Below, piece after piece: positions 21,916 to 59,693 of a stretch of 64,000 nt of DNA. The notes under the pieces were generated by a model. That model was not told the DNA's origin and made no database searches. It saw only the letters and a program-made list of their open reading frames with translations. Position numbers and translations under genes: made by a program. This stretch comes from Candidatus Hermodarchaeota archaeon (lineage in GTDB: Archaea; Asgardarchaeota; Thorarchaeia; Thorarchaeales; Thorarchaeaceae). The stretch is from contig JBHLLF010000009.1 in NCBI GenBank assembly GCA_048885865.1, forward strand, positions 1 through 64,000. Reading direction: 5' to 3'. Within the stretch, counting starts at the first letter, position 1, and the number at the start of each line of letters is the position of its first letter.

Positions 21916-22962
21916 ATGGTTTCCCCGGAAGCTATCCAGTGGTTATTGGCCAATTCGGGACCATCTATCCGATTTCAGACTGTAGTAGATTTGCTTCAAG
22001 ACCAAGATGTGGGGAGAGTTAGCTCTGTATTAGCAGATCTACTGGCCAGTCCTTTGGTTAGTGAATGGATAAGCAGGCTGAATCCAGGTCTTCAGATGAA
22101 ACAGATACACTCGTCTAGACCTGAAGCATTCGAGAACACCATGGGCAAACTGGGAGAGCTAGGGTTAAGAGCGGGGCTACAGCCATTTGATAGCAAGACC
22201 TTGCCATTTCGAGCTTGGTTGACAGACACTGCTGAGGATGAAATAGAAAATCCATTTCATGTCTTTTCGCGTGCTATAGTTGCCTCGTTCCTATCGTTCA
22301 CGGGCTACTCAAGCACTGAACCAGTTTACGACGTGCTTACAGAACGGCTTGAAGCGATTTACTCCTTTGCGAAAAGCCCAGATTTTGCAGATGTATATGT
22401 TGGCAAAAGGGGAGATGACGGCCTCGTTAATCCCCGGCTATATCCAGATCAGCAATTCGCTTTGCCATGGATTCATGACATACGCGGCTTCGCTAGCTCA
22501 AACCAGATTCTCTCCGATTCTAGTCTTCGTCAGAAAACAGAGACAGTTGTTTCAATGGTGCTTAGACCAGAATATCAAGAACTGCAACACGGCTACGGCT
22601 TCATGAAGTATGAGGATCAAGGATACAAGATTGGCTGGAGCGTCCATTTACCTGGCTTTAGTTCTGAACCATCAGATACTTCCATGCCGAATATACTTCT
22701 CATTCTCCCTATTATGGCACCATTCAAGACCGCCCGAAGTAGTGAATGGTTTATTCGAATGATGGAAAAACTGGAAGCTTGCAAGACTGAATATGACACA
22801 TATCAATTCCCGAGGGATTGGTTGCCCGAGAAGCAAGAGGGGTACTGGGTGAATGGGGCCTATATGGCCCTTGAAGAGAACAGGAGAAAATCATCTGCAA
22901 TTGAGTCTGAGTCAACATTTAGGATGTTCAGAATCAAGCATCTGATGGAGAAGTTTCCCTAG
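21916..22962 (+). CDS. Conserved hypothetical protein (alpha-helical, prenyltransferase-fold-like)
   Basis: IQWLLANSGPSIRF N-terminus; long ORF; start moved to ATG 21916. Confidence 0.7.
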   Translation: MVSPEAIQWLLANSGPSIRFQTVVDLLQDQDVGRVSSVLADLLASPLVSEWISRLNPGLQMKQIHSSRPEAFENTMGKLGELGLRAGLQPFDSKTLPFRAWLTDTAEDEIENPFHVFSRAIVASFLSFTGYSSTEPVYDVLTERLEAIYSFAKSPDFADVYVGKRGDDGLVNPRLYPDQQFALPWIHDIRGFASSNQILSDSSLRQKTETVVSMVLRPEYQELQHGYGFMKYEDQGYKIGWSVHLPGFSSEPSDTSMPNILLILPIMAPFKTARSSEWFIRMMEKLEACKTEYDTYQFPRDWLPEKQEGYWVNGAYMALEENRRKSSAIESESTFRMFRIKHLMEKFP

Positions 22963-24046
22963 ATGGTTTGGTGAAGCTGATTCTTGGAGACCCTCTAAAT
23001 AATACACTTAGAAAACGATTCCTTGTTATGATATATTTTGTTAGAAGAAAGCCAATTGTGATTCCTAGAATGAACCTTAGCGGCCAGAACAAAGTGCTGT
23101 GTTCAAGACCAGATAACGGTAGTCCAAGTGGCAATGCTACCAAAGGTGCAAGATAGAAGAAGACGGGATGAATCTCATAGAGCTCTTGTGAGTTCTTGCC
23201 AAGACCCATGAACAAGTTCCTGAGAAGATTGGAATACACCAACGCGCTTGAGGCCAGGAATACCAGAATAGTTCCAATGGTCCCTGGGATCAAGTAAATG
23301 AAAAGACTCACTCCAAGATTATCGACCGCAATGTCAGTAAACCCATTGAAATCAGAAACCAGGACTAGTATGACGGAAAGCAGAAGGAAAATAGCAGCAT
23401 CACGGACCTTTGATGATGACAGCCAGGGATTCAAGCCCCTATACTGACGCATGGCATTCCCAAAGAACACGAATGTTGCTGCCACAAATACGCTGCTTAG
23501 CCGCCATGGAACGAGATTTGGCAAAAAGAAGGACTGAATTATCATAGCAATAACTGGAAAGACCACTATGATAATCCATCTGGAGTAGTAGGGAAACCGC
23601 TGCAATGCTCGATCAGTGATTACGAACAGCATCAATCCGAAGTAGAGTACCGGCAGAAACCACAGATGAGAGGCTGAGAGGGGAGGCCCGTTCCCATATA
23701 GGAACCATAGAAAGATTTCCACGGGAGTAAAAGCTGACTCAATATTGGAGGAGAGTGGAAGAAATAGGACCATCATTATGATGTAAAGGAAAAAGTATGG
23801 AATCAGAAATTGCTTCCCTCGAGATACGGCGAAGTATCGTAAGTTCCCCCTATATCGATAGTTATTGTAGGTGAAACCAGCCAAGACGAAGAAGATGGCT
23901 ATTGTAAAACTGCTCAGGTGAATCGTAACGGGATTGAGCCATGGTATCATGGAATGGACTAGTATGACGAAAGTGATTCCGATGCCTTTTGTCACCTCAA
24001 TCCATTCAAGCCGGGGTAGTTGGGGCTCACCTTCCATACCTTCCAT
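22934..24046 (-). CDS. Acyltransferase family 3 membrane protein
   Basis: RLEWIEVTKGIGITFVILVH, FFVLAG, LWFLPVLY, LGKNSQELYEIH. Confidence 0.9.
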   Translation of the reverse strand: MEGMEGEPQLPRLEWIEVTKGIGITFVILVHSMIPWLNPVTIHLSSFTIAIFFVLAGFTYNNYRYRGNLRYFAVSRGKQFLIPYFFLYIIMMVLFLPLSSNIESAFTPVEIFLWFLYGNGPPLSASHLWFLPVLYFGLMLFVITDRALQRFPYYSRWIIIVVFPVIAMIIQSFFLPNLVPWRLSSVFVAATFVFFGNAMRQYRGLNPWLSSSKVRDAAIFLLLSVILVLVSDFNGFTDIAVDNLGVSLFIYLIPGTIGTILVFLASSALVYSNLLRNLFMGLGKNSQELYEIHPVFFYLAPLVALPLGLPLSGLEHSTLFWPLRFILGITIGFLLTKYIITRNRFLSVLFRGSPRISFTKPSRETSPSDA

Positions 24047-24146
24047 GAGTATATTCTCCGCCCTTGTTCCTCTACAAAGCTTTCATTCTGTTAGGGCTTC
24101 ATCCTGAAGAGTCTTTAGGCGCCTCTTCAGTTGTAGATTGATTCTC

Positions 24147-25142
24147 ATGTCAGAAGTATTGATTCTTTCACAGAATGAAGTGCAATCCTGTCTTCCCATG
24201 GGAAAGACAATCGAGGCAGTACGCGAGGCATACATTGCATTTGCCAAGGGCAGAGTGCAACTAGCACCAGTTGCACATCTGGATGTCAAGCAGTATAACG
24301 GAGAGGTCGATATCAAGCCCGGGTATGTCGAGGACTTTGGAATCATCGGGACAAAGATTGCCAGCGGATACTACGACAACCACAAACTCGGACTGCCGCC
24401 AGGAGTTGCTGTCATTGTCCTTATGGATCTGAAAACGAGTATGCCCATCGCTATAATGGATGGGACCTACATCACTGCCTACAGAACTGGTGCTGCTGGT
24501 GCGGTTGCAGCCGATGTCTTGGCCAGGAAGAATTCAAAGATTGTAGGGGTTGTAGGCACCGGAACCCAAGGAAGAATGCAGATTATGGCCCTGAGAGAGC
24601 TCTTCAATATAGAAGAGATTCGGGCTTGGGACATCGTCGGAGAAGTAGCTGAGCGCTATGCAAAGGAGATGGCTGAGAGTCTGGGGATAGAAGTGAATGC
24701 GTTTTCAGATGTGGGGGATGTCGTTCGAGATGTGGATATCGTCGTGACAGTGACTCCGTCTAGAGAGGCATTAGTCAAGAGTGATTGGATAGGAGAGGGC
24801 GTCCATATCAATGCAATAGGAGCAGATGGCCCAGGGAAGCAAGAACTGGACCCCAAGATTGTGGCGAATGCAGACAAAATTGTGGTGGACAGCCTTGTCC
24901 AGTGTCGAAGGATTGGAGAGATTCAACATGCTTTAGCACAGAACCTCATTACTGAAGACAATGTGCATGCCGAGATAGGTCAGATTCTGATTGGTGACAA
25001 GTCTGGTCGGGAGTCAGACGAGGAGGTAACCATGTTTGATTCAACTGGTCTAGCAGCTCAGGATATTGCTGCTGGATATGTGGTCTACAAGGAAGCCAAA
25101 GAAAAGGGGCTGGGACTGACGACAAATCTACTAAACATCTAG
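24147..25142 (+). CDS. Ornithine cyclodeaminase / mu-crystallin family (archaeal alanine dehydrogenase-like)
   Basis: ITAYRTGAAG, GTGTQG, HINAIGADGPGKQELD, FDSTGLAAQD. Confidence 0.92.
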   Translation: MSEVLILSQNEVQSCLPMGKTIEAVREAYIAFAKGRVQLAPVAHLDVKQYNGEVDIKPGYVEDFGIIGTKIASGYYDNHKLGLPPGVAVIVLMDLKTSMPIAIMDGTYITAYRTGAAGAVAADVLARKNSKIVGVVGTGTQGRMQIMALRELFNIEEIRAWDIVGEVAERYAKEMAESLGIEVNAFSDVGDVVRDVDIVVTVTPSREALVKSDWIGEGVHINAIGADGPGKQELDPKIVANADKIVVDSLVQCRRIGEIQHALAQNLITEDNVHAEIGQILIGDKSGRESDEEVTMFDSTGLAAQDIAAGYVVYKEAKEKGLGLTTNLLNI

Positions 25143-25154
25143 GGTGAGCGTGTC

Positions 25155-26117
25155 GTGAAAGAAATCAGCTTGGAGAGCATTCGGAAGGCACAGAAGACCA
25201 TCAAAAAGTATGTCAAGGCCACACCCCTTGTCCGTTCATATTCCCTCAGTGAGCGATGCCAGGGCCAAGTCTATCTTAAGCTGGAGAATCAGCAACACAC
25301 TAACTCATTCAAGGTGCGTGGTGCACTAAACAGAATGTCACAATTGAAAGCTAAAGAGAGGAAGAAGGGAGTCGTCACTGCCTCATCCGGAAATCATGCG
25401 CAAGGTGTGGCATATGCCGCGCAGCAGCTAGACATACCCGCCACAATAGTCGTACCAAATGAGGTCTCCAAGGCCAAGCTGAAGAAGGTTCGTGCGTTTG
25501 ATGTCGAGGTCGTCCTAGGTGGAGGATTCGATGAGGTGGAGGCCAAGGCCAGAGAGATGGCGAAGACAGAGAAGCTGACCTATGTAAGCCCCTACAATGA
25601 CTATGCAGTGATGGCTGGACAAGGCACTATCGGTCTCGAGATTATCGAAGAAATCGACGCCTTTGACTCGATTGTCGTACCTGTTGGGGGAGGCGGATTG
25701 ATTGCAGGCATCGCTGTGGCTGTTAAGAGTATTAGACCGGAAATCCAGGTGATTGGAGTTCAAACACCGGGTTCAGCCACAATGTATGAGTCATGGCTCG
25801 CAGGCGAGGTCGTTGAGATAGAAGAGTCAAACACCCTTGCAGAGGCATTTCTGGGAGGGGTTGAAAAAGGGTCTCTGACACTGGATGTTATAATGAAATA
25901 TGTTGACGACATTGTCTTAGTCGATGAGAAGACCGTGGCAGATGCAATCCGCCTTCTTTGGATAGAAGAGGGACAGGTGATTGAAGGAGCCGGAGCGACG
26001 TCCATAAGTCCCCTGTTAGAAACACCTGAACGATTCAATGGGCACACTGTTGTCTGTGTTGTGAGTGGAGGCAATATCGAGAGGTCGATTTTCGACAGAA
26101 TAATTGGTAGAACGTAG
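25155..26117 (+). CDS. Threonine/serine dehydratase (catabolic type, no ACT domain)
   Basis: LKLENQQHTNSFKVRG, ASSGNHAQG, PVGGGGL, VVSGGN. Confidence 0.93.
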   Translation: MKEISLESIRKAQKTIKKYVKATPLVRSYSLSERCQGQVYLKLENQQHTNSFKVRGALNRMSQLKAKERKKGVVTASSGNHAQGVAYAAQQLDIPATIVVPNEVSKAKLKKVRAFDVEVVLGGGFDEVEAKAREMAKTEKLTYVSPYNDYAVMAGQGTIGLEIIEEIDAFDSIVVPVGGGGLIAGIAVAVKSIRPEIQVIGVQTPGSATMYESWLAGEVVEIEESNTLAEAFLGGVEKGSLTLDVIMKYVDDIVLVDEKTVADAIRLLWIEEGQVIEGAGATSISPLLETPERFNGHTVVCVVSGGNIERSIFDRIIGRT

Positions 26118-26160: not shown

Positions 26161-26268
26161 GCGCTCGTTGTCTAGGGGCTATGATGGATCCCTGCCAATG
26201 CGCGGGGGTTTATCCCTCGGAACCGTAGAACGGATCCGGCCCGGGTTCGAATCCCGGCGAGCGCACCA
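26161..26268 (+). tRNA. tRNA-Gly(GCC) with canonical 33-nt intron (37/38; 26198-26230)
   Basis: GCGCTCG/CGAGCGC acceptor, GATCC/GGATC stem, BHB CTGC/GTAG, CCGGG-TTCGAAT-CCCGG. Confidence 0.95.
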
Positions 26269-26286
26269 TCCCTCTAATTATGTTCG

Positions 26287-27369
26287 TCATCTAACCAGAC
26301 TCTCAAAAAGCCGAGCTGACCTCTTATCCTGAGAATCAGTTTCAGTTGCTTGTTTCAATGCTTCCCGTGCTTCATCAATGCGGTTCTGCTTTAGAAGGGC
26401 AATTCCAAGATCACACCAAGCAGCTGTGAGTGACGGGTCAATTCCAATAGCCGATCTTAGTGCAGTTTCCGCTTCCTCGTATTTGCTTTGAGCGAGCAAG
26501 CATTTACCCAATGTGTGGGGGAAGTCAGCATATTCAGGGGACTCTTCAGCCAGTTTCCTGTACTTAGCTTCAGCCTGGGGCATGCTTCCCAAGCCACTCA
26601 ATGAGATAGTGAACAACTGTCTGGCTCTTGGGTCAATTCGACTCAGTTCTGCTCGTTTAGTCGAGAGATCTATTAACCCAATCTCTTCAAGTTTCGCCCC
26701 AAGTCTATCGATTGCAAAGTCAGTAAGTGGCTCAATGCTTATTGCTTTCTCATATGCCTCGAGGGCTTCATCCAACATGCCTTGCATGAGCAGGACAACT
26801 CCTAGTTTGATCCACACTACGTAGCTCCGGCTGTTGAATTGAAGGGCTTTCTGATAACTATGGATAGCTTCTTCGTATTTCTGGTCGCGTTGTTGAAAAT
26901 CGGCCAACTTCTCCCACTGAAATGAATCATCTGGATGGGTTCTCACGCCTTCTTCATAGGCTTCCTCTGCTGATACTTCAAGACCCAGCTCAGCAGATAG
27001 CTCAGCAATGTGGTTCCATGACGATGTGTCGTCAGGCTTTCTAGAAACTGCTTCGCGAAAGCATTCTATTGCCTCAATCTTGAGGCCTTCTGACATCAAG
27101 AAGAAACCTAGCTGCCTCAGAGCGTTGGGACTCGCTTCATGAGTCCGAGCAGCCTCTCTTAGCATTGTCTTGGCAGCCTCTCTTTTACCATGATTGTAAA
27201 GGAATATTGCGTAGGAAGTCAAACCCGCCTCGAATTCGGGATAAGTAGATGTCAATTCTATATAGGTGTCCTCAGCTGCTCTATGATCTCCTTTCTGTTC
27301 AAACTCAATGGATTTGGTCAAGAGCCCAAATGCTCTTTCATGTCGTATCCAATTCCGAATCCTACGCAA
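26287..27369 (-). CDS. TPR repeat protein
   Basis: Eight or more TPR-like units. Confidence 0.88.
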   Translation of the reverse strand: MRRIRNWIRHERAFGLLTKSIEFEQKGDHRAAEDTYIELTSTYPEFEAGLTSYAIFLYNHGKREAAKTMLREAARTHEASPNALRQLGFFLMSEGLKIEAIECFREAVSRKPDDTSSWNHIAELSAELGLEVSAEEAYEEGVRTHPDDSFQWEKLADFQQRDQKYEEAIHSYQKALQFNSRSYVVWIKLGVVLLMQGMLDEALEAYEKAISIEPLTDFAIDRLGAKLEEIGLIDLSTKRAELSRIDPRARQLFTISLSGLGSMPQAEAKYRKLAEESPEYADFPHTLGKCLLAQSKYEEAETALRSAIGIDPSLTAAWCDLGIALLKQNRIDEAREALKQATETDSQDKRSARLFESLVR

Positions 27370-27417
27370 CGTCTATTCTCTCAGTGATGATATTGGATTA
27401 ATGGCATATAGATTATC

Positions 27418-27482
27418 GTTAGCGGGTTATCATGCAGCTCTTCGAAGCTATGACCAGGGTTCGAATCCCGGCGAACGTACCA
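27418..27482 (+). pseudogene. Degenerate tRNA-Gly-like copy; direct repeat of the tRNA-Gly(GCC) 3' end
   Basis: 27460-27482 matches 26246-26268 at 21/23; decayed anticodon and D-arm-like sequence upstream; no 5' acceptor strand. Confidence 0.8.
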
Positions 27483-27586
27483 TTTCTTGCATTCCTAGAA
27501 GCATCGATACGATATGTTCATCTTAGAGTGAATGCCTGTTGTGCAGCAATAATAAGCCTTCAAAATCCATGGGGGACCGAAGTGAG

Positions 27587-28057
27587 ATGTCTTTTCGATA
27601 TACTGTTAGAGTAGGATATATCCTGCTTGTTCTAACCCTACTAACACCCTTCAGCGCAATGATCCAGGCAATAACTGAAGATAATACCACGATTGCGCTA
27701 CTTGCCCCCTTGTGGCAGTACATATGGCACAGCACATTGCCAGTTCATTTTGCATTCTCTCCATTCGGTTTGCTATACTTTCCATACTATGGTTTGAGTG
27801 TGTATATCTCGTGGCTAGCTTACAATACAGCCCGCAAGCAGAATATTGAAAGAAAACAGTATGCATGGAGATTAGTCATCATAATAGCTCTTCAGATTGC
27901 AGTGATACTGCTAATTCCGCCCTTTAGTGGGGACCCTCGGCCCGTGAATATTCCACTGCCTATAATGGGCGTACTGGGACTTCTTCTTACAAACTACACT
28001 GTGAGGAAACTAACTAGTCCATGGGAGGATCAAGTGGTCTTTTCTGAATCAGAATAG
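27587..28057 (+). CDS. Four-TM membrane protein
   Basis: Hydrophobic segments; C-terminal SPW motif. Confidence 0.7.
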   Translation: MSFRYTVRVGYILLVLTLLTPFSAMIQAITEDNTTIALLAPLWQYIWHSTLPVHFAFSPFGLLYFPYYGLSVYISWLAYNTARKQNIERKQYAWRLVIIIALQIAVILLIPPFSGDPRPVNIPLPIMGVLGLLLTNYTVRKLTSPWEDQVVFSESE

Positions 28058-28076
28058 ACTCATGCATAGCTAGTAA

Positions 28077-28099
28077 TTTGAATCTCTGCGAGCGCATCA
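28077..28099 (+). repeat. Second repeat of the tRNA-Gly(GCC) 3' end
   Basis: TTTGAATCTCTGCGAGCGCATCA vs TTCGAATCCCGGCGAGCGCACCA (19/23). Confidence 0.75.
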
Positions 28100-28151
28100 C
28101 TTCTCATTCATCGTCCTATGCAGGACAACACGTAAATCATGAGAGAGTGAG

Positions 28152-28586
28152 ATGCATGCTATGAATAACCATCTTCTCCATATGGCTGCTCGTGTGTGGC
28201 TGATTGAAACGCTGTTCTCCATATTCAATTTCTTCGTTCTCATGAATCTCGTCTATGAACCGGCGTGGGGTGAATTGGTAGCACACCAGATAGGGATGTC
28301 GACCAGGATTGTGGTTATTGTGATTCTCGCATATATGCTACTTCGATATGTCCAGGAATACGAAACGAGAGACCTTGTTCATGTAGGGTTGCTCTGGGTC
28401 GGACTGGAGCTATTGTTCGAATGGGGTGGCAGTCTATTGGTTGGGCGATCTGTAGAAGAAATCCTCATTGGATGGAACATCTTTGCGGGCTACATTTGGC
28501 CCTACGTACTACTCACCTACCTTCTGTCCAATCTTGTCATAGGTGTAGCTTTCCATCCAGGGAAGAGAACAACTGGTCAGAGATAA
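28152..28586 (+). CDS. Conserved four-TM membrane protein
   Basis: GELVAHQI, GLLWVGLELLFEW, WNIFAGYIWP. Confidence 0.75.
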   Translation: MHAMNNHLLHMAARVWLIETLFSIFNFFVLMNLVYEPAWGELVAHQIGMSTRIVVIVILAYMLLRYVQEYETRDLVHVGLLWVGLELLFEWGGSLLVGRSVEEILIGWNIFAGYIWPYVLLTYLLSNLVIGVAFHPGKRTTGQR

Positions 28587-28687
28587 GAGACTGATCGTTA
28601 ACCAACCAATATGGGTAAATTGTGATTGCTAGGGCGATCCTGTGCAAGATTGAAAAGGAAGTTTGCATCTAGTGCTCATTTGGCGAG

Positions 28688-29815
28688 TTGAAACCAATGC
28701 AAAAGGGCACTACTGGACACAGACCTAAAATGCACCCCGTAGTGGCTGTGCTTTCAAGAGCACCAATGAAGCTCATCTACACAATAATCCTCGTTGGTAT
28801 ACTTACCTATGCTGGGTTTCTTTTACTCACTCTCTTGACAGGACAGATTACACAAGTATTCTTCTCATTCATGCATCTTGTGCAATTAGATTTCTCCTTG
28901 CTAATTGCGGTTGGACTCTTCTTCCTTTTCAGTTACTACAAGACTTTGGAGAAAAGGCTCAGAGAGATTCGCTATGTCTTCTTGATCGATGATGATGATT
29001 TTGAAGGATATCTCGAAGAATTGACCAGCAAGATGGGTAGCGCACAGGGCTACCTGCTAGGTCTGCCGTTTATTGCTCTATCAATAGCTTCGATTTTTCT
29101 CTTTGTAATGCCAACAATGCCTAATGCTCTATTCCCAGTCAATCCACTATCACCTGTTTGGCTCTACCTTTCCATAGTCGAGTTCAGCCTCATTATGCTT
29201 CCATTGTTCGGAGTAGCTATCTGGCTGGGCATGGTAGTCATGTCAGTTTCGAAAGATATTGGACGAAAGTTGGAGATTTCTGTGGAACCGATTTCGCCTG
29301 ATCGCGCAGGAGGACTAGTTTCATTCTCTGAGGTGCTCTTGAGAGGTGTATTCATGTTTTCGCTGTTGCTAGTATTGCTGATCCCCCTGCTCGCCTACCT
29401 TGTGCACAATCTAAGCTCAAGTAGTCCCCTATTGGCTCTAATTCCTACAGCTGGCTTGGTGTTGGCAATTATGACCATTTCTGTATTCTTTTTGGTCCCT
29501 CAATACAACATTCACAGCATTTTGGAGGAGGAGAAGAAGAAACACTTGTCCCAAGTCAGTAGGGAAGTCAATGATGTGCTTTCCAATATACGCGGCGTGC
29601 TCTCCGCCTCTCCCACAATGTCTGATATTCCATCTCAGCAACTCACACTTGTAAGTCTTCAACTTACTATGCTCTTTGAACAAGTGGAAAAGATGAAAAC
29701 ATGGCCATCCACTCTCTGGATAGCAGCCAAGGCAGTCAGTTCTTTGTTGCTGATTCTGCTAACATTCTTTGTTAATCAGCTGCTCCTATACTATATAGAA
29801 TCGATTCTTAGCTGA
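28688..29815 (+). CDS. Multi-pass membrane protein
   Basis: Several TMs; PDRAGGL and VPQYNIH..L...K...TWP motifs. Confidence 0.75.
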   Translation: MKPMQKGTTGHRPKMHPVVAVLSRAPMKLIYTIILVGILTYAGFLLLTLLTGQITQVFFSFMHLVQLDFSLLIAVGLFFLFSYYKTLEKRLREIRYVFLIDDDDFEGYLEELTSKMGSAQGYLLGLPFIALSIASIFLFVMPTMPNALFPVNPLSPVWLYLSIVEFSLIMLPLFGVAIWLGMVVMSVSKDIGRKLEISVEPISPDRAGGLVSFSEVLLRGVFMFSLLLVLLIPLLAYLVHNLSSSSPLLALIPTAGLVLAIMTISVFFLVPQYNIHSILEEEKKKHLSQVSREVNDVLSNIRGVLSASPTMSDIPSQQLTLVSLQLTMLFEQVEKMKTWPSTLWIAAKAVSSLLLILLTFFVNQLLLYYIESILS

Positions 29816-30101
29816 CTACCATCAAAATTCGGCTATCAATCCTGAGAAGCCATTATCAATACCTATCGGATGCGTCCAATTCTCGTTCCTCAGATTGCTA
29901 ATTCACTGGTACTCATTTGGTATGCTAGAACCCAAAGACTTGGGCAAAACACGCCGCTCAAGGTTTAAGTACGGAAAAATCCAATATTCAAATGACTGTG
30001 GGAGAGTTAGCATTCATTGCCGCCACCTCAATACACTGTTTCTACGTCCTAGTTTTCCTAAGGTCTACTCTCATAGTCAATTGTCTAATTGAGGAGAAAA
30101 A

Positions 30102-31532
30102 ATGGAAGATAACAGACGGATACGATTAGGAATAATGGTATCATTTACCATTGTGATGCTATTCATGACGGTCTCTGTCACGCCCGTAGCCGCATATGGC
30201 AACTCGAGTGGAGTCCGCTCTAACAAGACAGGAAATGACCCTCATGACTGGATTACATTCCGGGCTATCAGTATACTTGGCTCGGATGGATATTCGAAAA
30301 TCAGCGCTGAGGCCAACACTTACTTCGCGAAGATGCAGGAGGGATCTTACGATGCTGACTGGGGAGAAGGAGTCATTGCAGACCTGCCTGTTGCCGCCAG
30401 TGGACACTATTGTGACCCAACTACTGGTCTAGGTTTCAATCTTATTTTCCAAGGTGCTGGGAGCTATGCTCAGGGATACTTCGACAAAGCTGTGGATTTG
30501 TACGAAGGCGGGAATAAGGAAGAGGCATACTACAACCTAGGAGCTGCAATCCACGTGCTCCAAGACCTCACGGTTCCCCATCATGCACACATTTGGGCAT
30601 GGGAGCAGGCTGGACATACGACCTACGAAAGCTACATCAACGGAAAAGAATCCTTCATCAAAGGAATAGGCGGCCCTGGCTACTATGACATGGCTACAAC
30701 TGCAAATGGGTGGGTCCGCTACAACGCAAAGCAGAGTTATGGATACCACACTTATGTGAACGGTGCTTCAACTTCAGGCAACAACGATTACTGGCTTGCG
30801 GCCCGGAATCTCTTGCCTATAGCTGTAAAGACGACTGCTGGATTCCTGCGCTTCTTCTATGAGGAGGCCAATCAAGGGAGAAAAGAAGCCGAGTTCTCTG
30901 GAACTCTATACAGTACAGGGACATCATATGTCAACTATGTCGATGTGCCCTTTGGCGATCATACAATTGTACTGGTCGGCAATGAGCCTGGTGCAGATGT
31001 TGACCTCTATGTGAAATGGGGGGCAACGCCCTCTTACCCCTACACTGCATCTAGCTTGACAGGAGATTCAATGGAGAAGGTCACTGTACGAGGGAAAGGT
31101 CGACTATATTTCAAGGTCTACTCTTGGAAAGGTAGTAGCAGCTGGAAGCTAGCTGTCATCTACGGAAAACCAGACAAGTCAGAATCTATCACCAATTCAC
31201 TCAGCTATTCTTCTGATCGCACAGACACCTTCAGCCTCAAAGGAGGACAGACTGAAGGCTACATGATTGGCTGGGCATTCATGGCTGGGCCTGATGGCAA
31301 CGACTTCGATCTCTATGTACGATGGGAGAGAGCCCCTACGACTTCCACCTATTACGACAGAGGCTATACATCGAAACCTCAGGAGATATGTGATGCCAGG
31401 TCACCGAAGTACGCACCTTCCTCTGGATACCAAGTGAAGGGCTACGTCTATAGCTACAACTATCTCTTCTATGTGATGGCGAGGGCATACAGAGGCTCAG
31501 GCGACTACATGCTCCTGATTCTCATATTCTAG
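30102..31532 (+). CDS. Secreted zinc-dependent phospholipase C family protein with two PPC-type domains
   Basis: Signal peptide; HDWI, GSYDAD, HYCDP, LGAAIHVLQDLTVPHH, HTTYE; ADVDLYVKWG and NDFDLYVRW..APTTSTYYDRG. Confidence 0.82.
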   Translation: MEDNRRIRLGIMVSFTIVMLFMTVSVTPVAAYGNSSGVRSNKTGNDPHDWITFRAISILGSDGYSKISAEANTYFAKMQEGSYDADWGEGVIADLPVAASGHYCDPTTGLGFNLIFQGAGSYAQGYFDKAVDLYEGGNKEEAYYNLGAAIHVLQDLTVPHHAHIWAWEQAGHTTYESYINGKESFIKGIGGPGYYDMATTANGWVRYNAKQSYGYHTYVNGASTSGNNDYWLAARNLLPIAVKTTAGFLRFFYEEANQGRKEAEFSGTLYSTGTSYVNYVDVPFGDHTIVLVGNEPGADVDLYVKWGATPSYPYTASSLTGDSMEKVTVRGKGRLYFKVYSWKGSSSWKLAVIYGKPDKSESITNSLSYSSDRTDTFSLKGGQTEGYMIGWAFMAGPDGNDFDLYVRWERAPTTSTYYDRGYTSKPQEICDARSPKYAPSSGYQVKGYVYSYNYLFYVMARAYRGSGDYMLLILIF

Positions 31533-31550
31533 TGATGCTTTAGTTTGATG

Positions 31551-31598
31551 AGGGCATAGCAGGCTGTGAAATGCCGCTGTGCCCCTAGCTTCTTTTAT
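31551..31598 (+). terminator. Hairpin plus T-tract after the PLC gene
   Basis: GGGCATAGC/GCTGTGCCC stem followed by TTCTTTTATT. Confidence 0.45.
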
Positions 31599-31692
31599 TG
31601 ACTTGTGAAGATGGGCGGCTTCTTCCTCGTTGACACAAAGCCCAAACTATATTTCGGATTGTTAGTATCTTGACTTAATGAGATGAACAAAC

Positions 31693-31935
31693 ATGATGAA
31701 CAAGTTCCAAGACCTGATGAATGCCAAAGTTCCTGTACAGCTAGTAGTGGACGCAATAACCGATAGAGCGCATCACAAGGTTGTCAAGGGCAGAATAAAA
31801 CTTGTCACCAGGAACTACATCGAAATAGGCAGGGCGGCCACAGGAGATGAAAAATCCCAGTTTGGTACCGAAGAAGTCAGAGTCATAATTCCAATGGAGA
31901 AGATTGCCGAGGTAATATACTCACAAAGTGAATAG
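31693..31935 (+). CDS. Small hypothetical protein (possible Sm-like beta fold)
   Basis: KGRIKLV..NYIEI...VIIPMEKIAEV pattern. Confidence 0.6.
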   Translation: MMNKFQDLMNAKVPVQLVVDAITDRAHHKVVKGRIKLVTRNYIEIGRAATGDEKSQFGTEEVRVIIPMEKIAEVIYSQSE

Positions 31936-31953
31936 ACGTAAGCAGGAATGTGC

Positions 31954-32895
31954 TTAGTCCGGAACCCCGTGAATCCTAACGGCGTTCTCCCAATAGAGCT
32001 TGCCAAGAACTGATGCAGGCAAATCTAGACCATTGATGAAGGTCCCACCAGTATCTTTTGTGTCTGCATCATCGAATGGGAGGGGTCTTTCTCGGACATT
32101 GGTTTCCCATAGAAGCCTCTGGGCAAGATATCTTCCGGCAAAGTAGTCCTCACTCCCCCTGTTGTTCGACAAATCCGTACCAAACATGATTCTATCAGAA
32201 TACTTGAGCAAGAAATCACGAGCCTTTTCGACATCCTTGCTGAGCTCTCTTGCCATCCATCGGGAAGATGCCGTATCAATGACTACATTTGGAAATCTAT
32301 CCAACCATCTGGCAAGGTTTGAGAGATGATGTATCTCTGGCTGTGAGCCAAAGTGGGGAAGCTGGAAGACAAGGCGTGAATGGCGTTCTATAACATTCTC
32401 AAGTTGTCCAAGACTGTCCGCCTTGGTGCCGTACTTCTTCTTATCTTGATAGTGTAAGTCATAGTATGTGTCGGGATCGGCAACATGAAGCAGAAGAGGG
32501 ACTTTGTGGTCCTCAAGGGCCTGAAAGACTGGATCTAAGCGGAGATCATCAATGCTGAAGTCATCAGGGACTTCCTGATAGTAGTCCCTCCAACGAGGAC
32601 CGAACCACATCTTTGCCAGTCCGTAACCGTCGGGCCCAATTCTCTCAATAACTGCTATGACTTTGTCCACCTCAAAATTCGCAATATCACTAAGAGATAG
32701 ATACCTGGCAAAAACGAACCTGCTAGGAAACCGCTTCTTTATTGCTTCGAGATTACCCTCTCCATGCACAATAGCAACCTGAGAAGCGACGTTAAACTCT
32801 TCTTCGATCTTCACCATCTGCATTAGATCATCTGAATGACCGATATGCGTATGTGCATCGAAAATAGGCCCTTTGTATTTCCACTCTTCTGTCAA
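31954..32895 (-). CDS. Amidohydrolase family 2 protein
   Basis: DAHTH, LLHVADP, PHFGS, DRIMFGTD, KLYWENA. Confidence 0.9.
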   Translation of the reverse strand: MTEEWKYKGPIFDAHTHIGHSDDLMQMVKIEEEFNVASQVAIVHGEGNLEAIKKRFPSRFVFARYLSLSDIANFEVDKVIAVIERIGPDGYGLAKMWFGPRWRDYYQEVPDDFSIDDLRLDPVFQALEDHKVPLLLHVADPDTYYDLHYQDKKKYGTKADSLGQLENVIERHSRLVFQLPHFGSQPEIHHLSNLARWLDRFPNVVIDTASSRWMARELSKDVEKARDFLLKYSDRIMFGTDLSNNRGSEDYFAGRYLAQRLLWETNVRERPLPFDDADTKDTGGTFINGLDLPASVLGKLYWENAVRIHGVPD

Positions 32896-33054
32896 AATTG
32901 ACCAATTCTGCGATATTATAGGTATTGAAAAGCGATTCCGTTCAGGACCTTCTCTCTATTGAGCTAGTCCAAGAGCTTCTCTTTGACGGTTGCCTTGTGT
33001 ATGACTCAACTCTTAAGATGGACTTTGATTTTGACGAGTCGAGAGAATTCAATC

Positions 33055-33885
33055 ATGACGCCAGTAGCGCTTGTGAAGTTCAAGGATAACCTGAAGAGCA
33101 CGCTCAGTGCAGGCCTGGACCTTATTGGTGGGTTTTCAAATCTGAAATCACCAATACTCATTAAGCCTAACATCTGCACGATTTCTGATTCTACTGGCTC
33201 GTCAGTCACAGATGTGAGGGTCGTTGAGGCTATTGTTAGACTCATTCTTGAGGAAGACAAAGGATTGGTCGTTAAGATAGTTGAATCAGACAGTCAGAGC
33301 AAATACGCAGATGAAGCCTTTGAGAAGTTCGGATATGCAGACTTGGAAAGGTCAATGATGAAGGAGGGGTTCGATGTGTCTGTGGTCAATCTTTCCAAAT
33401 CACCTCTGATCAAAGCGGAGTTCAAAGGTAGATATTTCGACAGGCCTGAGCTGCCAGAACTGCTGGTCAATCCCCATTATTTTGTTTCAGTCGCTGCAGC
33501 TAAGACGCATTATCTTACTACCATCACTGGAGCTTTGAAGAACCAGTTCGGAGTTCTTCCTAGGAAGGATCAAGGCTTCTATCATTCAGAAATTGATGAT
33601 GTGGTTGTAGACCTGAATAGTTTCATACGACCAGACCTGTGCATCGTTGATGCAAGATTTGGTGTGGAGGGCTGGAACGGACCCAAAACGCGACGACTTG
33701 ATGCATTCATCATTGGTTGCAAGCCTGCTTCAGTCGATGCCACAATGGCTCGAATCATGGGCTTCGAGCCAGGTGAGATTCCACATATACTGGAATCTAG
33801 TCAGCTAGGTCTTGGCAACATCGATCCAACCGTCTTGGGGGAAGCCATTGAATCAGTGCAGGTCGCGTTCAATCTGCCTAAATGA
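33055..33885 (+). CDS. DUF362 domain protein
   Basis: ILIKPN, KTH...ITGALKNQFG, PDLCIVDA, VDATMARIMG. Confidence 0.9.
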   Translation: MTPVALVKFKDNLKSTLSAGLDLIGGFSNLKSPILIKPNICTISDSTGSSVTDVRVVEAIVRLILEEDKGLVVKIVESDSQSKYADEAFEKFGYADLERSMMKEGFDVSVVNLSKSPLIKAEFKGRYFDRPELPELLVNPHYFVSVAAAKTHYLTTITGALKNQFGVLPRKDQGFYHSEIDDVVVDLNSFIRPDLCIVDARFGVEGWNGPKTRRLDAFIIGCKPASVDATMARIMGFEPGEIPHILESSQLGLGNIDPTVLGEAIESVQVAFNLPK

Positions 33886-34400
33886 CTATGTTTCTTATGC
33901 AACCCACTCAAATGACCAATGAAGCTCGAACTGCGAGGAGTGAAGGAACAGTGAAAAGAGTCCTATTCTTGTGTACTGGAAATTCAGCACGCAGTCAGAT
34001 GTCGGAAGCCCTGCTAAGACTACTGGGCGAGGATAGATTTGAAGCCTATAGTGCAGGTACACATCCAGCATCTGAAGTAAACACCTTTGCCCTAGAAGTC
34101 TTGAAAGAAAGAGGAGCCAGCATAGAGGGCCTCTTTCCGAAGACTATTGATCACTTTACAGGACAGGAGTTTCATCTTGTAGTGACAGTCTGCGATAACG
34201 CGAAAAAGGAGTGCCCGACTTTCTCAGGAGCGAAAGCAATGGACCATTGGTCGCTAGAAGATCCCGCAGCCTTTGAGGGGACCTATGAGGAGATTCTTCT
34301 AAAATTCAGAGAAACCAGAGATGAGATTGAGAGAAGAATCAAGACTTACATTCTCCAGGACAAGCTTGCGGAGGACCCATTGACAACACTCAGATTGTAG
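33882..34400 (+). CDS. arsC: Arsenate reductase / low-molecular-weight phosphatase
   Basis: VLFLCTGNSARSQMSEA, VTVCD...CP, HWSLEDP; true start probably GTG 33951. Confidence 0.9.
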   Translation: MTMFLMQPTQMTNEARTARSEGTVKRVLFLCTGNSARSQMSEALLRLLGEDRFEAYSAGTHPASEVNTFALEVLKERGASIEGLFPKTIDHFTGQEFHLVVTVCDNAKKECPTFSGAKAMDHWSLEDPAAFEGTYEEILLKFRETRDEIERRIKTYILQDKLAEDPLTTLRL

Positions 34401-34409
34401 ATTGGTACA

Positions 34410-36419
34410 CTAGCCCTCCTCTACCCAAGAGAACTTCCTCTGAAGAGTTGCAGGATAGACTTTTCGCCAAGGATACTCTACCTTCTGACACCATTTGTAG
34501 ATAGTCTTGGGATGGATGTATGACTTGAGGGCCGTTCCAAGGTTCCAAGTGCGACTATCCCGTGCGAGGGAATAATCCATCTCTATCTTGCGCTTCACCA
34601 ACTTGGCTTTTTCTAACCTATCCTTTGCGATTTTGACCGTCTTCTCAGCGCGAGTCATCCGTGCAGCAGACTTCTCTTTGAAGTCTGCAAGAGATTGTTG
34701 TTTCTTCTCAAGAGCTACTCTGCTTCTATTGTAGCGCTTTCGAGCCTCTGTAAGGCCCTCCTCCGCCTTATCCAAACGTATCCTACTCCGCTCTATACTG
34801 ACTTGGGCATCCTCTAGACGCTGCTTCTTGGTTGTCTTACCCTTCCTTTTGCTGCCTCTTGTTCGACGTTTTCTTTCTCGAGCATTGTCCCAGGTGATCT
34901 TGGCATTGTCTCGTTTCTCACGCCAAGCAGCGACTGACTGCTTGTTCTTCTCGACAATCTCCTTCTGCTTAGAAACTGCAGACTGACGTTTAGCGATATT
35001 TTCGTTCTCTTTCCTCTTCGCCGCTCTCAGACTCTTGCTCTTTTCAGTAAGTTGAGATTCAGCTTTCTTAACACGTTCTCCTGCCTTTCTGATTCGTTCT
35101 TTATAGCGGTCTGCTGATTTGGCCCATCCTTTCGGTGCTTGTTTTGTATGGTTCATCACTCGTGCAACTTCAAGATTGGCACGCTTCACTGCCTCTTTCT
35201 TGATGAATTCCTGATCAGTTCTTTTGGCCTTGCTCCGACCAAGCTCCTCCTTCATTGTTAGAGTTGCATGAAATGTTCTGAAGACTTTAGCAGTGAGGTC
35301 TTTGTCGAATCCGCCAAGGAAACGGTTGACTTGTACACTTCCCACACTTGGGAAGATTTGTGCAGGTTTTTTCGGGTCTACACGAGTGCTTTTGCTCTTC
35401 CGCGTCCTGAAGGACTCCAATCTCTCCACTGCATTGCTATAGAGTTCTACGAACACCTCGTAGACGTCCGGGGGCATCTCTAACTCTTTATGCCATGCAA
35501 CACTATCCTTGCCAAGGAAGTCGAATACAACTGAGTTCGTTGTGAATGTGAGGTGCTCAACTCTGAGAGTCGTTGCACCCACGGTATCAGCTTCATCAGG
35601 ATCTTTCTCATCACCAACTCGGAGACTAAGTCTATCAATGAGATAACAGGCAGCAGCTACCATTCTTGTCTTTGGGCTGCTGGAGTGGATGCCCTCCATG
35701 ATATATTCTCGAATCTCGGATATCTTTCTGGACAGTTTCATGGCCGTGTCGAACTTGGCTGCTTCACGTTCCTGTTTGATAGGAGTGCTGTCATGGAGCC
35801 AAATGTACTTTGTACTCTTGGTGAGTTCATCAGTCCATTTTGCCACCCACATACTATCTGGAGCCCACTCAATCTTGGCCCAGTCACCCTCCGGGACCTC
35901 GGTATCAGGACTCAGGTTCAAGGTGATGTCTCGTTCTCTTGCACCCTGCTTCCATCGCCCTCGCAGGGGATGCTCCCCTCGACCCATAAAGATACCAGAT
36001 GGCTCTGTCTGGTAATTGCCAAGCTCCATGCGTTCTCCATCTACGAGTGCATAACCAAACTCCTCTTTCAGCCGTTCTCGTTCGGCTTTGCGAGCCTCCC
36101 TTGCGGCTTTCTTCTCATCCTTACTCATAGCTTCCTTTGTAGCACGTTCTTCTTCAACGAATTGGATTACGGAAGAAAAGTCGACTTCATCCAAGTCTAG
36201 CGGAGGTTCTACTTTCAGAGCTTTGCTGAAGTCGCTCATGAAGTTTTCAATGAAGACAGAATCCTCAACGTAGGGGGTGCCTAGTTTTCTCACCCACGCA
36301 ATCGCCATCTCTTCTTGAAGCTGATTAAGGATTATGGATTCGCCGCGAACAACTATCTCAAAATGATGTGGTTCTGGTGGGTCTAGTACAATGATGCCTT
36401 TATGTTCGAGGGACTCCAT
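34410..36419 (-). CDS. top1: DNA topoisomerase IB (eukaryote-like Top1)
   Basis: LEHKG, EPSGIFMGRGEHPLRG, LRVGDEKD, FDFLGKDS, AKVFRT, MNH, long coiled-coil linker, NLGTALKSYIHP catalytic Tyr. Confidence 0.93.
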   Translation of the reverse strand: MESLEHKGIIVLDPPEPHHFEIVVRGESIILNQLQEEMAIAWVRKLGTPYVEDSVFIENFMSDFSKALKVEPPLDLDEVDFSSVIQFVEEERATKEAMSKDEKKAAREARKAERERLKEEFGYALVDGERMELGNYQTEPSGIFMGRGEHPLRGRWKQGARERDITLNLSPDTEVPEGDWAKIEWAPDSMWVAKWTDELTKSTKYIWLHDSTPIKQEREAAKFDTAMKLSRKISEIREYIMEGIHSSSPKTRMVAAACYLIDRLSLRVGDEKDPDEADTVGATTLRVEHLTFTTNSVVFDFLGKDSVAWHKELEMPPDVYEVFVELYSNAVERLESFRTRKSKSTRVDPKKPAQIFPSVGSVQVNRFLGGFDKDLTAKVFRTFHATLTMKEELGRSKAKRTDQEFIKKEAVKRANLEVARVMNHTKQAPKGWAKSADRYKERIRKAGERVKKAESQLTEKSKSLRAAKRKENENIAKRQSAVSKQKEIVEKNKQSVAAWREKRDNAKITWDNARERKRRTRGSKRKGKTTKKQRLEDAQVSIERSRIRLDKAEEGLTEARKRYNRSRVALEKKQQSLADFKEKSAARMTRAEKTVKIAKDRLEKAKLVKRKIEMDYSLARDSRTWNLGTALKSYIHPKTIYKWCQKVEYPWRKVYPATLQRKFSWVEEG

Positions 36420-36585: not shown

Positions 36586-36660
36586 GCGGCCATAGTCTAG
36601 GGGTTATGATCCGAGCCTTCCAAGCTCGTAACCCGGGTTCGAATCCCGGTGGCCGCACCA
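36586..36660 (+). tRNA. tRNA-Gly(TCC), intronless
   Basis: GCGGCCA/TGGCCGC acceptor, CGAGC-CTTCCAA-GCTCG, canonical T-arm, CCA. Confidence 0.96.
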
Positions 36661-51695: not shown

Positions 51696-51804
51696 GGGCC
51701 CGTTGCCTAGTCTGGTTTCAGTGAGCTTTTCGCCTCTGAAAGGCACATAGGGCGCTAGCCTTCTAAGTTAGAGGTCGACGGTTCAAATCCGTCCGGGCCC
51801 GCCA
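51696..51804 (+). tRNA. tRNA-Arg(TCT) with 31-nt D-loop intron (19/20; 51716-51746)
   Basis: GGGCCCG/CGGGCCC acceptor, CTAGC-CTTCTAA-GTTAG; strict BHB: CCTA/TAGG, GTCT/AGGC, TTCAG/CTGAA. Confidence 0.94.
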
Positions 51805-59227: not shown

Positions 59228-59347
59228 GCGGAGGTTGCCAAGCCTGGCCAAAGGCGCTAGGTTGAGGGCCTAGTTCAGTAGTGATTCGCGAGACTCCGGG
59301 TAATTCGTAGACCCGGGGCGCGTATTCAAATCTCGCCCTCCGCACCA
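59228..59347 (+). tRNA. tRNA-Leu(GAG) with 32-nt T-arm intron (53/54; 59293-59324)
   Basis: GCGGAGG/CCTCCGC acceptor, CTAGG-TTGAGGG-CCTAG, long variable arm, GCGAG|TTCAAAT CTCGC; central helix CGCG/CGCG with AGA and TAT bulges. Confidence 0.93.
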
Positions 59348-59670: not shown

Positions 59671-59693
59671 TTCAAATCTCACCCTCCGCACCA
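59671..59693 (+). repeat. Direct repeat of the tRNA-Leu 3' end
   Basis: TTCAAATCTCACCCTCCGCACCA vs 59325-59347 (22/23). Confidence 0.9.

Follow-up and report, generated by a model that had tools for sequence, protein, structure and literature searches.

A putative gene cassette array anchored at a tRNA-Gly(GCC) gene in a Thorarchaeota genome

We analysed a window of 64,000 nt (contig JBHLLF010000009.1, positions 1-64,000) from a metagenome-assembled genome (MAG) of 3.58 Mb, which is 87% complete and is labelled G000 here, with its relatives labelled G0xx. In this window, an intact tRNA-Gly(GCC) gene is followed by accessory genes that are separated by copies of the tRNA 3′ end. We read the region of 26.2-31.7 kb, with a probability of about 70%, as a tRNA-anchored gene cassette array, built up as modules with nothing but cargo recombined time and again into the 3′ end of tRNA-Gly(GCC). 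A DNA search was performed across 40 related genomes, after which 23 loci were retrieved from two genera; counts at the family level refer to 86 family genomes. The same architecture, an intact tRNA-Gly(GCC) followed by co-oriented 3′-end copies, was found throughout the genus and in a second genus. Judged from sequence relationships, G000 appears to be a thorarchaeotal genome, as relatives of a 375-aa protein encoded in the array occur only in Candidatus Thorarchaeota/Promethearchaeota MAGs, including SMTZ1-45. The array is made up as follows:

26161-26268 (+): tRNA-Gly(GCC), the array anchor, with encoded CCA (Rfam tRNA 43.2 bits; ARAGORN with introns allowed)
26269-27482: cassette 1, starting with a pyrimidine tract; TPR gene 26287-27369 (-) (Pfam TPR_1, 1.4e-34); core of the terminal fragment at 27452-27482
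27483-28099: cassette 2 (memb1); gene of a 172-aa membrane protein, 27539-28057 (+); terminal fragment at 28077-28099 (19/23)
28100-28594: cassette 3 (memb2); gene of a 144-aa membrane protein, 28152-28586 (+); terminal fragment decayed
28595-29829: cassette 4 (D); gene of a 375-aa multi-pass membrane protein, 28688-29815 (+); boundary fragments decayed
29830-31681: cassette 5 (E); gene of a 476-aa Zn-dependent phospholipase-C-like protein with an N-terminal anchor, 30102-31532 (+) (PF00882, 1.3e-7)

The tRNA gene, which the first-pass annotation had proposed from the sequence alone, proved to be real. It scores 43.2 bits with the Rfam tRNA model (gathering threshold 29) and contains an insert of 35 nt; ARAGORN, when introns were allowed, assigned the anticodon GCC and a canonical 33-nt intron after position 37 (~26198-26230), because of which the gene is overlooked by ARAGORN at default settings. 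In the relatives, this tRNA is 95-100% identical. The same annotation had described copies of the 3′-terminal 23-mer TTCGAATCCCGGCGAGCGCACCA (26246-26268) at 27460-27482 (21/23) and 28077-28099 (19/23), at spacings of 1214 and 617 bp, and all of this was found as described. Both copies are on the same strand as the tRNA, less than 2 kb downstream of it, and each is followed by a pyrimidine tract. They are intergenic, situated among the TPR gene and the open reading frames (ORFs) 27539-28057 and 28152-28586, both of which encode hydrophobic helices. The copy at 27460-27482 is longer than initially described, since local alignment gave an identity of 28/30 starting at 27454, with a core of 27452-27482.

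No match with three or fewer mismatches was found in 100 dinucleotide shuffles of the window. When both strands of the 3.58-Mb genome were scanned with up to five mismatches, the 23-mer matched the two fragments and six other tRNA-like 3′ ends elsewhere, three of which are ARAGORN tRNA calls. The window copies are not functional tRNAs, as they gave no Rfam matches at E ≤ 10 and a fold z-score of +0.5. Chance and a tRNA pseudogene are thus ruled out as the origin of the copies by the shuffles, the genome scan, Rfam and the fold score, and the repeat observation is confirmed. Upstream of 27452-27482, a weak tRNA-like stretch extends back to ~27416-27424 (BLAST, MAFFT), and its similarity is greater to the anticodon arm of a tRNA-Gly without an intron than to the corresponding arm of the resident gene. 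We considered whether a complete degenerate tRNA lies there and rejected this, as there is just a weak anticodon-arm-like extension (shuffle p ~0.06).

It had been predicted that insertions and deletions between relatives should begin and end at the repeats. In pairwise BLAST of the window against G015, G010, G002, G009, G013 and G008, every alignment break within 26.2-31.7 kb was located at a fragment, or at a place where relatives retain one. The modules delimited in this way are TPR (26269-27482), memb1 (to 28099), memb2 (to ~28594), D (to ~29829) and E (to ~31681). Within its array, G015, which is 93-95% identical to the window, has three extra units: the tRNA is followed by one of 300 bp, TPR by one of 755 bp and D by one of 478 bp. 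In G010, the 300-bp unit is present, a 3.7-kb ABC-transporter operon replaces memb1 and E is missing; this locus holds five copies besides the tRNA. The order of units is variable as well: it is tRNA-TPR-memb2-memb1 in G009, where cassette 3 directly follows TPR, versus tRNA-TPR-memb1-memb2 in G000. In the one-contig genome of G004, the ABC operon alone lies between the tRNA and one perfect fragment, and G011 represents a near-empty site with none of the array genes between the tRNA and the conserved distal genes. The units are therefore not syntenic core genes of the lineage, since G011 is devoid of all of them. Overall, at genome identities of 75-95%, insertions, deletions and replacements have their breakpoints at fragments, and the kinds of units comprise TPR, the two membrane proteins, the 375-aa membrane protein, the Zn-phospholipase-C-like protein, the 3.7-kb ABC operon and units of 0.3-0.75 kb.

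Individual cassettes are reused in different contexts. Cassette 1 occurs with the same ends in G015, G010 and G009, with differing right-hand neighbours. Homologues of cassette 2 were found at other array positions in G015, G009 and G006, and its place is taken by the ABC operon in G010. At the end of cassette 3, a degenerate fragment is retained at the equivalent place in G010 and G015 (L012 5985, L047 5858). Cassette D, whose 375-aa protein matched no Pfam family, was found in 12 Thorarchaeota loci, and in nine of these tRNA-Gly(GCC) fragments border it; it adjoins the tRNA in G012, follows one other unit in G008 and is fourth in G000. Cassette E, with decayed boundary fragments in G000, is present in G015 and G013 and missing in G010, where the junction holds a tRNA fragment (L012 7358). 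This fragment indicates that the array of the window reaches ~31.65 kb with decayed boundaries. More generally, at the decayed G000 boundaries (after 28586, 29815 and 31532) recognisable fragments still exist at the same junctions in relatives. The suggestion that further units with decayed copies continue to about 31.5 kb was thus borne out, with five cassettes in total.

We then compared the tRNA-Gly(GCC) 3′ copies that are not themselves tRNAs, 44 fragments in the 23 loci of the two genera. Upstream, their identity to the tRNA is near background, and the increase begins with the first T-stem base (0.5-0.77 at positions -6 to -1). From the T loop to the CCA the identity is 0.86-1.0 over most of the length, with 0.75-0.77 at two positions, and the CCA is followed by ~10 nt of almost pure pyrimidine (≥90% at +1 to +5). 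Fragment length ranges from 23 to >65 nt; typically, a fragment comprises the T arm, the acceptor 3′ strand and the CCA (28 nt), and approximately one in five to six is longer. For instance, the copy at the end of the TPR unit has the anticodon-arm-like stretch in G000, G010 and G009, and a fragment in G071 contains the canonical intron. A fragment in G008 has a long insert in the T arm that equals the insert of a D-loop-intron-bearing tRNA-Gly(GCC) copy in G003, the sole such copy found in G003. In addition, several fragments have the acceptor allele CGGACGC, which is that of the live tRNA of SMTZ1-45. As the fragments derive from several natural tRNA-Gly alleles, their donors are other Thorarchaeota, and the fragments themselves are pieces of natural tRNA-Gly alleles circulating in this group.

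Comparing junctions that share one cassette located the likely point of exchange. When the left cassette was the same (ABC unit), the upstream flank (0.66) and the 5′ strand of the T stem (1.0) were conserved, in contrast to the sequence after the CCA (0.30); for all left cassettes tested, this latter sequence was not conserved (0.30-0.40). When the right cassette was the same, the pyrimidine tract (0.67-0.80) and the downstream flank (0.43-0.57) were conserved, while the upstream sequence was not (0.21-0.23). Since the left part of the fragment goes with the left cassette and the pyrimidine tract with the right one, the exchange point is placed within the 23 nt from T loop to CCA. A cassette accordingly consists of a pyrimidine tract, cargo and a tRNA 3′ copy. 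Two contigs of one genome, G078:C10 and G078:C189 (L034, L030), share one cassette end followed by two different neighbours, with a switch just after ...CCCGGCG. One of these two contigs ends at the shared cassette end; such arrays probably break assemblies through strain variation. In G010, the fragment after the 300-bp unit has 14 uninterrupted nucleotides (CCCGGCGAGCGCAC) in common with the tRNA.

The degree of preservation differs between fragments. At the end of the ABC unit, the 40 nt that precede the fragment are ~67% identical between G004 and G010, whereas each of the two fragments agrees with the live tRNA at 28/28 positions; under equal decay, the expectation for this is 0.675^28, or ~2e-5. 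This preservation would be accounted for by recent recombination, by gene conversion with the tRNA or by selection acting on the site. The array of G000, on the other hand, looks partly fossil and largely inactive, because its fragments have two, four and then more mismatches or are unrecognisable.

Altogether, the array could have formed as follows. Cargo-only modules of 0.3-4 kb, usually with one gene in either orientation, would recombine repeatedly into the 3′ end of tRNA-Gly(GCC). Such a module would start with a pyrimidine tract of ~10 nt, which becomes the terminator region of the tRNA, and would end with its own copy of the tRNA 3′ part (T arm, acceptor 3′ strand and CCA; 28 nt, sometimes more). 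A crossover in the T-loop-to-CCA segment would leave an intact tRNA, the module and a hybrid fragment, and repeated events would stack the modules. Recombination between fragments would then delete, swap and reorder modules within and between Thorarchaeota species. The direction of the events and a circular or imported intermediate are the more conjectural parts of this scheme. The catalyst would act in trans, and might be an enzyme that has escaped recognition or is encoded on unbinned mobile DNA, or else host homologous recombination on identities of 14-40 nt.

Several points weigh against this interpretation. No catalyst was found, the mechanism being deduced from its scars, and neither a free circular module nor an attP-bearing element was found. 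A scan of JGI metagenome contigs returned five matches, four of which are unrelated tRNAs in tRNA clusters and one of which is a Thorarchaeota fragment. MAGs are incomplete (87% for G000), and mobile DNA is often left unbinned. The exchange point depends on few informative pairs and on the assumption of no later mutation, and the cases of G078 and the 300-bp unit are too few to fix the crossover. In G010, the fragments have 3, 1, 0, 5 and 4 mismatches with increasing distance from the tRNA; this is not monotonic, and therefore insertion was not always at the live tRNA. Furthermore, fragment lengths of 23 to >65 nt are not predicted by a single fixed att site.

The array is flanked by the following features:

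22934-24046: acyltransferase gene, upstream
24138-26117: ornithine cyclodeaminase gene and pyridoxal-phosphate (PLP) enzyme gene, upstream
31682-33881: variable genes, with an 80-aa ORF, an amidohydrolase gene at 31954-32895 (-) and a DUF362 gene at 32983-33885 (+) (Pfam)
33882-34400 (+): low-molecular-weight phosphatase gene, conserved distal flank (PF01451)
34410-36419 (-): eukaryote-type DNA topoisomerase IB (Topo IB) gene, 669 aa (PF01028, PF02919, PF14370)
36586-36660 (+): tRNA-Gly(TCC), distal flank (ARAGORN default)

The segment of 31682-33881 contains no recognisable tRNA fragments. Its genes are common to G015, G010, G002 and G013; they were not seen in the retrieved loci of G011, G004, G009 and G006, which have WD40 genes in their place. 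These genes may be old cassettes. Beyond the array, near 32980-33000 of the window, G015 has an extra segment of 719 bp (L011 13232-13950), which separates the amidohydrolase gene from the DUF362 gene and contains a 228-aa ORF, and ~21 bp of the BLAST match to the window is present on both sides of it. Topo IB, with Topoisom_I_N, catalytic core and C-terminal domains, is present in 74 of the 86 family genomes, in a single copy in 71, and in all 23 high-quality ones. It is found near tRNA-Gly(GCC) in several genera, and in G019 the tRNA adjoins the Topo IB gene. Cassettes therefore accumulate in the interval between the tRNA and this conserved neighbouring gene. On the upstream side, the ornithine cyclodeaminase and PLP-enzyme genes are limited to G000, G015, G002, G008 and G010. 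In genomes without them the acyltransferase gene abuts the tRNA, and the upstream side is therefore variable too.

The cargo was characterised by a Pfam scan of ~45 different array ORFs or families. Apart from TPR, WD40, beta-helix or other large surface proteins, this revealed an ABC transporter with a helix-turn-helix regulator, a TetR regulator, radical-SAM/spore-photoproduct-lyase-like and cytidylate-kinase-like proteins, a caspase-like peptidase, a metallo-beta-lactamase, a nitroreductase, an epimerase, a GNAT acetyltransferase, HEPN, DUF362 and Zn-phospholipase-C-like proteins; the remaining ORFs are orphans. No recombinase, transposase or recognised mobile-DNA nuclease was found among these ~45 families. 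Comparing the codon usage of the units had been suggested as a further check. Neither codon usage nor GC content sets the units apart, and GC and GC at third codon positions are like those of the neighbours. This unremarkable composition fits an exchange among Thorarchaeota.

Recombinase families were also searched for in whole genomes. Tyrosine recombinases (PF00589) were found in all 14 control genomes and had no match in the 87%-complete G000; among the 15 other genomes of the genus, three had matches (G004, G011 and G007). These sporadic enzymes are not conserved, the sole recombinase of the complete genome G004 has no homologue in the genus, and no tRNA fragments were seen alongside the sporadic integrases in the retrieved stretches. 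The SSV-type integrase PF16795 was found in none of 17 genomes. For Cas1 (PF01867) there was no match in G000, none in 16 genomes of the genus and one in 28 genomes of genus g5, and it was found in 11 of the 14 other genera of the family. As a side observation, g1 and g5, the genera richest in multi-copy tRNA-Gly(GCC) fragments, are nearly Cas1-free, and this may be a phylogenetic coincidence. The resolvase PF00239, the Y1 transposase PF01797 and IS110 (PF01548) had no match in G000, and the TnpB zinc-ribbon PF07282 had sub-threshold matches only, on other contigs. The PF04986 profile gave no matches in the control genomes. In a search for attP, the exact 28-mer was not found in viral contigs. 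Topo IB is the only tyrosine-recombinase-like catalyst found in the G000 genome. We rejected it as a locus-specific clue, because many genera have it as a conserved single-copy gene next to this tRNA and because it cannot adjoin arrays at other tRNAs; as a candidate acting in trans it is speculative.

A different kind of change was found at the 5′ end of the tRNA. In G015 (L011 = G015:C40, 3449-4900), the tRNA gene is preceded by a 12-nt relic of the tRNA 5′ end. After this relic come a 1.3-kb unit containing an orphan ORF of 342 aa and then a complete tRNA-Gly(GCC), which has a promoter-like region of its own and, in the D loop, an additional insert of ~29 nt (L011 4777-4806). A second, apparently independent event is common to G063/SMTZ1-45, G068 and G089. 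Here, a 12-nt relic ending at the same nucleotide (nt 12) is followed by a linker of 15-16 nt and a new tRNA allele, whose acceptor is GCGTCCG/CGGACGC and which carries a related insert in the D loop; the new copy in G089 is truncated after the anticodon stem. The loci with 5′ relics are L011 3449-4900, L052 1816-1980, L048 327-455, L056 and L057. The D-loop insert, which is likely a second intron forming a strong hairpin, lies 2 nt from the end point of the relic. It is present in the tRNA-Gly(GCC) of eight of the 86 family genomes (G015, G020 (G020:C82), G003, G063, G068, G080, G086 and G089), and in G020, G080, G086 and G003 it occurs without a relic; the G003 copy has an additional insert of ~65 nt before the T loop and no canonical intron. 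The insert of G015 is identical to that of G020, which belongs to a different genus, and the new promoter region of G015 resembles that of G080. From the identity of the G015 and G020 inserts we conclude that whole tRNA alleles move horizontally between genera. In the foreign tRNA copy of G015, one joint is seamless within the tRNA body and the other is abrupt at nt 12/13. The relics look compatible with a break near position 12-14 that was repaired from a foreign allele. The 342-aa orphan ORF of G015 was considered as a candidate enzyme and rejected: it is unique in the genus, has one 54% homologue, gave no Pfam, PDB or atlas lead and has a predicted local distance difference test (pLDDT) score of 0.37 in the atlas.

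A direct repeat of a tRNA 3′ end beside an intact tRNA is the textbook sign of integrase-mediated integration with tandem accretion. The array might therefore be a graveyard of viruses or plasmids that used a tyrosine integrase to enter the tRNA gene serially, and of which later deletions left cargo remnants between att scars. The layout of the repeats matches such accretion, as in tycheposon islands (bioRxiv 10.1101/2020.12.28.424599), passages of PMC8813620 describe Heimdallarchaeum viruses that integrate at a tRNA-Gly gene by a viral integrase, and tyrosine recombinases do occur sporadically in three of the 15 other genomes of the genus. We nevertheless consider this explanation unlikely. 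Neither an integrase nor a fragment of one was present among the ~45 ORF families of the 23 loci, PF00589 has no match in G000 or in 12 of those 15 genomes although it was found in every control, and PF16795 was found in none of 17 genomes. The recombinase of G004 is unique to that genome, and the sporadic integrases lack neighbouring tRNA fragments in the retrieved stretches. Moreover, units of 0.3-0.6 kb have both ends intact and are reused in different orders, a pattern that random internal deletion does not predict. A target-site duplication by a Cas1-like or casposase-like enzyme, in which staggered cuts around the 28-nt tRNA end would lead to its duplication like that of CRISPR repeats, would account for the 28-nt repeat, the co-orientation and a roughly proximal growth (D being next to the tRNA in G012 and fourth in G000), all of which resemble CRISPR and casposon arrays. 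This model is largely refuted, and for practical purposes excluded in this genus, by the distribution of PF01867 (0/16 in the genus and 1/28 in g5, versus 11/14 other genera) and by fragments whose length is not fixed. In addition, the left part of the fragment differs from the resident tRNA and goes with the cassette, and hence it was not copied from the target.

Host homologous recombination alone may be a serious alternative, at least for the reshuffling of modules, although we think it rather improbable as the full account. After a first duplication, the fragments would serve as portable homology for RadA-type or homology-facilitated illegitimate recombination. This is in line with the lack in G000 of any of the searched recombinase families, with the variable fragment length and with fragments that are pieces of natural tRNA alleles, introns included. 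Similarly, the 5′ relic of G015 looks like one homologous and one illegitimate joint, and the replacement of memb1 by the ABC operon between two fragments is the outcome of a double crossover. The identities available for some events are very short, however, such as the 14 uninterrupted nucleotides for the fragment of the 300-bp unit in G010, and a left boundary at the first T-stem base and a conserved pyrimidine tract, both shared among the 44 fragments, suggest a defined site. It is also left unexplained how new single-gene modules would gain standard ends. Moreover, tRNA-fragment arrays are not known to be general among archaea, all of which have RadA. Finally, only the 5′ relics suggest a homing-like nuclease, that is, a free-standing endonuclease that cuts the tRNA gene, with repair copying a donor allele together with cargo and displacing the old end. 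We regard this as quite improbable. The two apparently independent 12-nt relics, which both end at nt 12 and are followed by a tRNA-Gly(GCC) with the D-loop intron of ~29 nt at a distance of 2 nt, speak for it, as does the mobility of the tRNA allele that is evident from the intron shared by G015 and G020. Against it, no nuclease gene was recognised in any unit, the 342-aa ORF of G015 having given no lead, and the D-loop intron is also found without a relic in G020, G080, G086 and G003. Displaced 3′ copies are often 28/28 identical to the live gene, so that there would be no sequence immunity.

Among known systems, tRNA-targeted integrative elements (Williams 2002, as cited in PMC8813620) and the tRNA-targeted islands known as tycheposons (bioRxiv 10.1101/2020.12.28.424599) are similar in having an intact tRNA at one end and co-oriented partial copies between units. 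In these islands, as here, newer units push older ones away from the tRNA, the cargo is accessory and the content varies between close relatives. The array shares with them the tRNA border with direct 3′ repeats and the presence/absence breakpoints at the repeats. It lacks an integrase gene: the elements of tRNA islands encode tyrosine or serine recombinases and integrase genes or fragments are retained, in contrast to the 23 loci, where there are none. The units described here are also mostly single genes of 0.3-1.3 kb, whereas tRNA islands consist of multi-kb elements with replication or mobility modules. The array has neither Cas1 nor the fixed-length duplication of casposons and CRISPR. 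With respect to homing end-replacement, no nuclease family was found and 3′ copies often equal the live end, and the 5′ relics beside D-loop-intron alleles are suggestive. Streptococcal cis-mobilizable elements (CIMEs), found beside integrative and conjugative elements (ICEs), are integrase-less, att-flanked modules that follow one another at a conserved gene's 3′ end and are mobilisable in trans. Their cognate ICE integrase is known, unlike any for the units here, which are much smaller, far more numerous and found at many tRNAs. Aloposons of Heimdallarchaeum (PMC8813620) are likewise Asgard mobile DNA at tRNA sites, for which the relevant passages of that source name no integrase; these passages describe them as large, with two giant genes and a four-gene module, and not as one-gene units between tRNA fragments.

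A further parallel is with integrons, including sedentary chromosomal arrays, integrase-less attC clusters and those of archaea (Ghaly et al. 2022, PMC9668308). There, too, cassettes that mostly hold one gene are each bounded by a travelling copy of the site, cassettes are reshuffled, lost and shared between species, and the repeat has a hairpin-forming segment (the T arm in our case). Discrete cassettes that are exchanged at sites are thus a property of both. Integrons depend on IntI, attC and an attI platform, whereas here IntI is lacking, a tRNA 3′ end serves as the site and a functional tRNA gene as the platform. Neither intI nor attI was seen beside the array, as the upstream genes encode ornithine cyclodeaminase, the PLP enzyme and the acyltransferase, and PF00589 is absent from G000. 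At the cassette ends, the repeat consists of T arm, acceptor strand and CCA rather than attC, with no covariance-model search for attC having been made. The cassettes are also not promoterless units co-oriented with the platform, as the TPR gene and much of the cargo in relatives are antisense to the repeats. With cassette genes in both orientations, there is no common promoter logic, unlike in integrons. The archaeal-integron paper (PMC9668308) makes no mention of tRNA, and our literature searches found no description of such arrays in Asgard archaea. Cassette arrays of tRNA fragments are apparently a recurrent, undescribed phenomenon.

Copies of other tRNA 3′ ends were noticed as well. The window contains a tRNA-Leu-like gene with an insert (59228-59347) that neither ARAGORN nor Rfam at its gathering settings reported. 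Its 3′ end recurs 324 bp downstream (59671-59693) in the same orientation and with two mismatches; a small minus-strand ORF lies in between, and the whole forms a one-unit array. Further arrays were seen in G000 at other tRNAs: C54 holds at least nine tRNA-Ala-like fragments, C23 holds Tyr and Arg fragments, and Cys and Ser fragments are present on C28 and C5, respectively. In the window, such fragments were noted at position 170, where the copy is Ala-like, and at 51782, and there is a weak tRNA match (32.8 bits) at 51741-51801.

The genomes of Asgard archaea are large and gene-rich and contain many acquired genes, whose uptake and shuffling are poorly understood. The value of the present locus lies in clean comparisons at 93-95% identity, a near-empty site, intron-bearing tRNA alleles that move between genera and the constraints that these put on the mechanism. 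It raises a testable question, namely which protein or host recombination pathway acts at the 28-nt tRNA end. If real, a cassette system at tRNA 3′ ends that does without a recognisable integrase would mean that genes flow by a new route in the prokaryotes most closely related to eukaryotes, and it would also account for the breaking of Asgard MAG assemblies at such loci. We can only tentatively extend this, with the odds somewhat against it, to a general platform of gene capture and exchange in Thorarchaeota, in which integrase-less one-gene cassettes would circulate between species and use the T arm, acceptor and CCA of tRNAs as their recombination site; the catalyst would be a co-opted housekeeping enzyme, or else a recombinase or nuclease from a family that has escaped recognition. 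If true, the archaeal relatives of eukaryotes would have evolved, independently, a functional counterpart of integrons.

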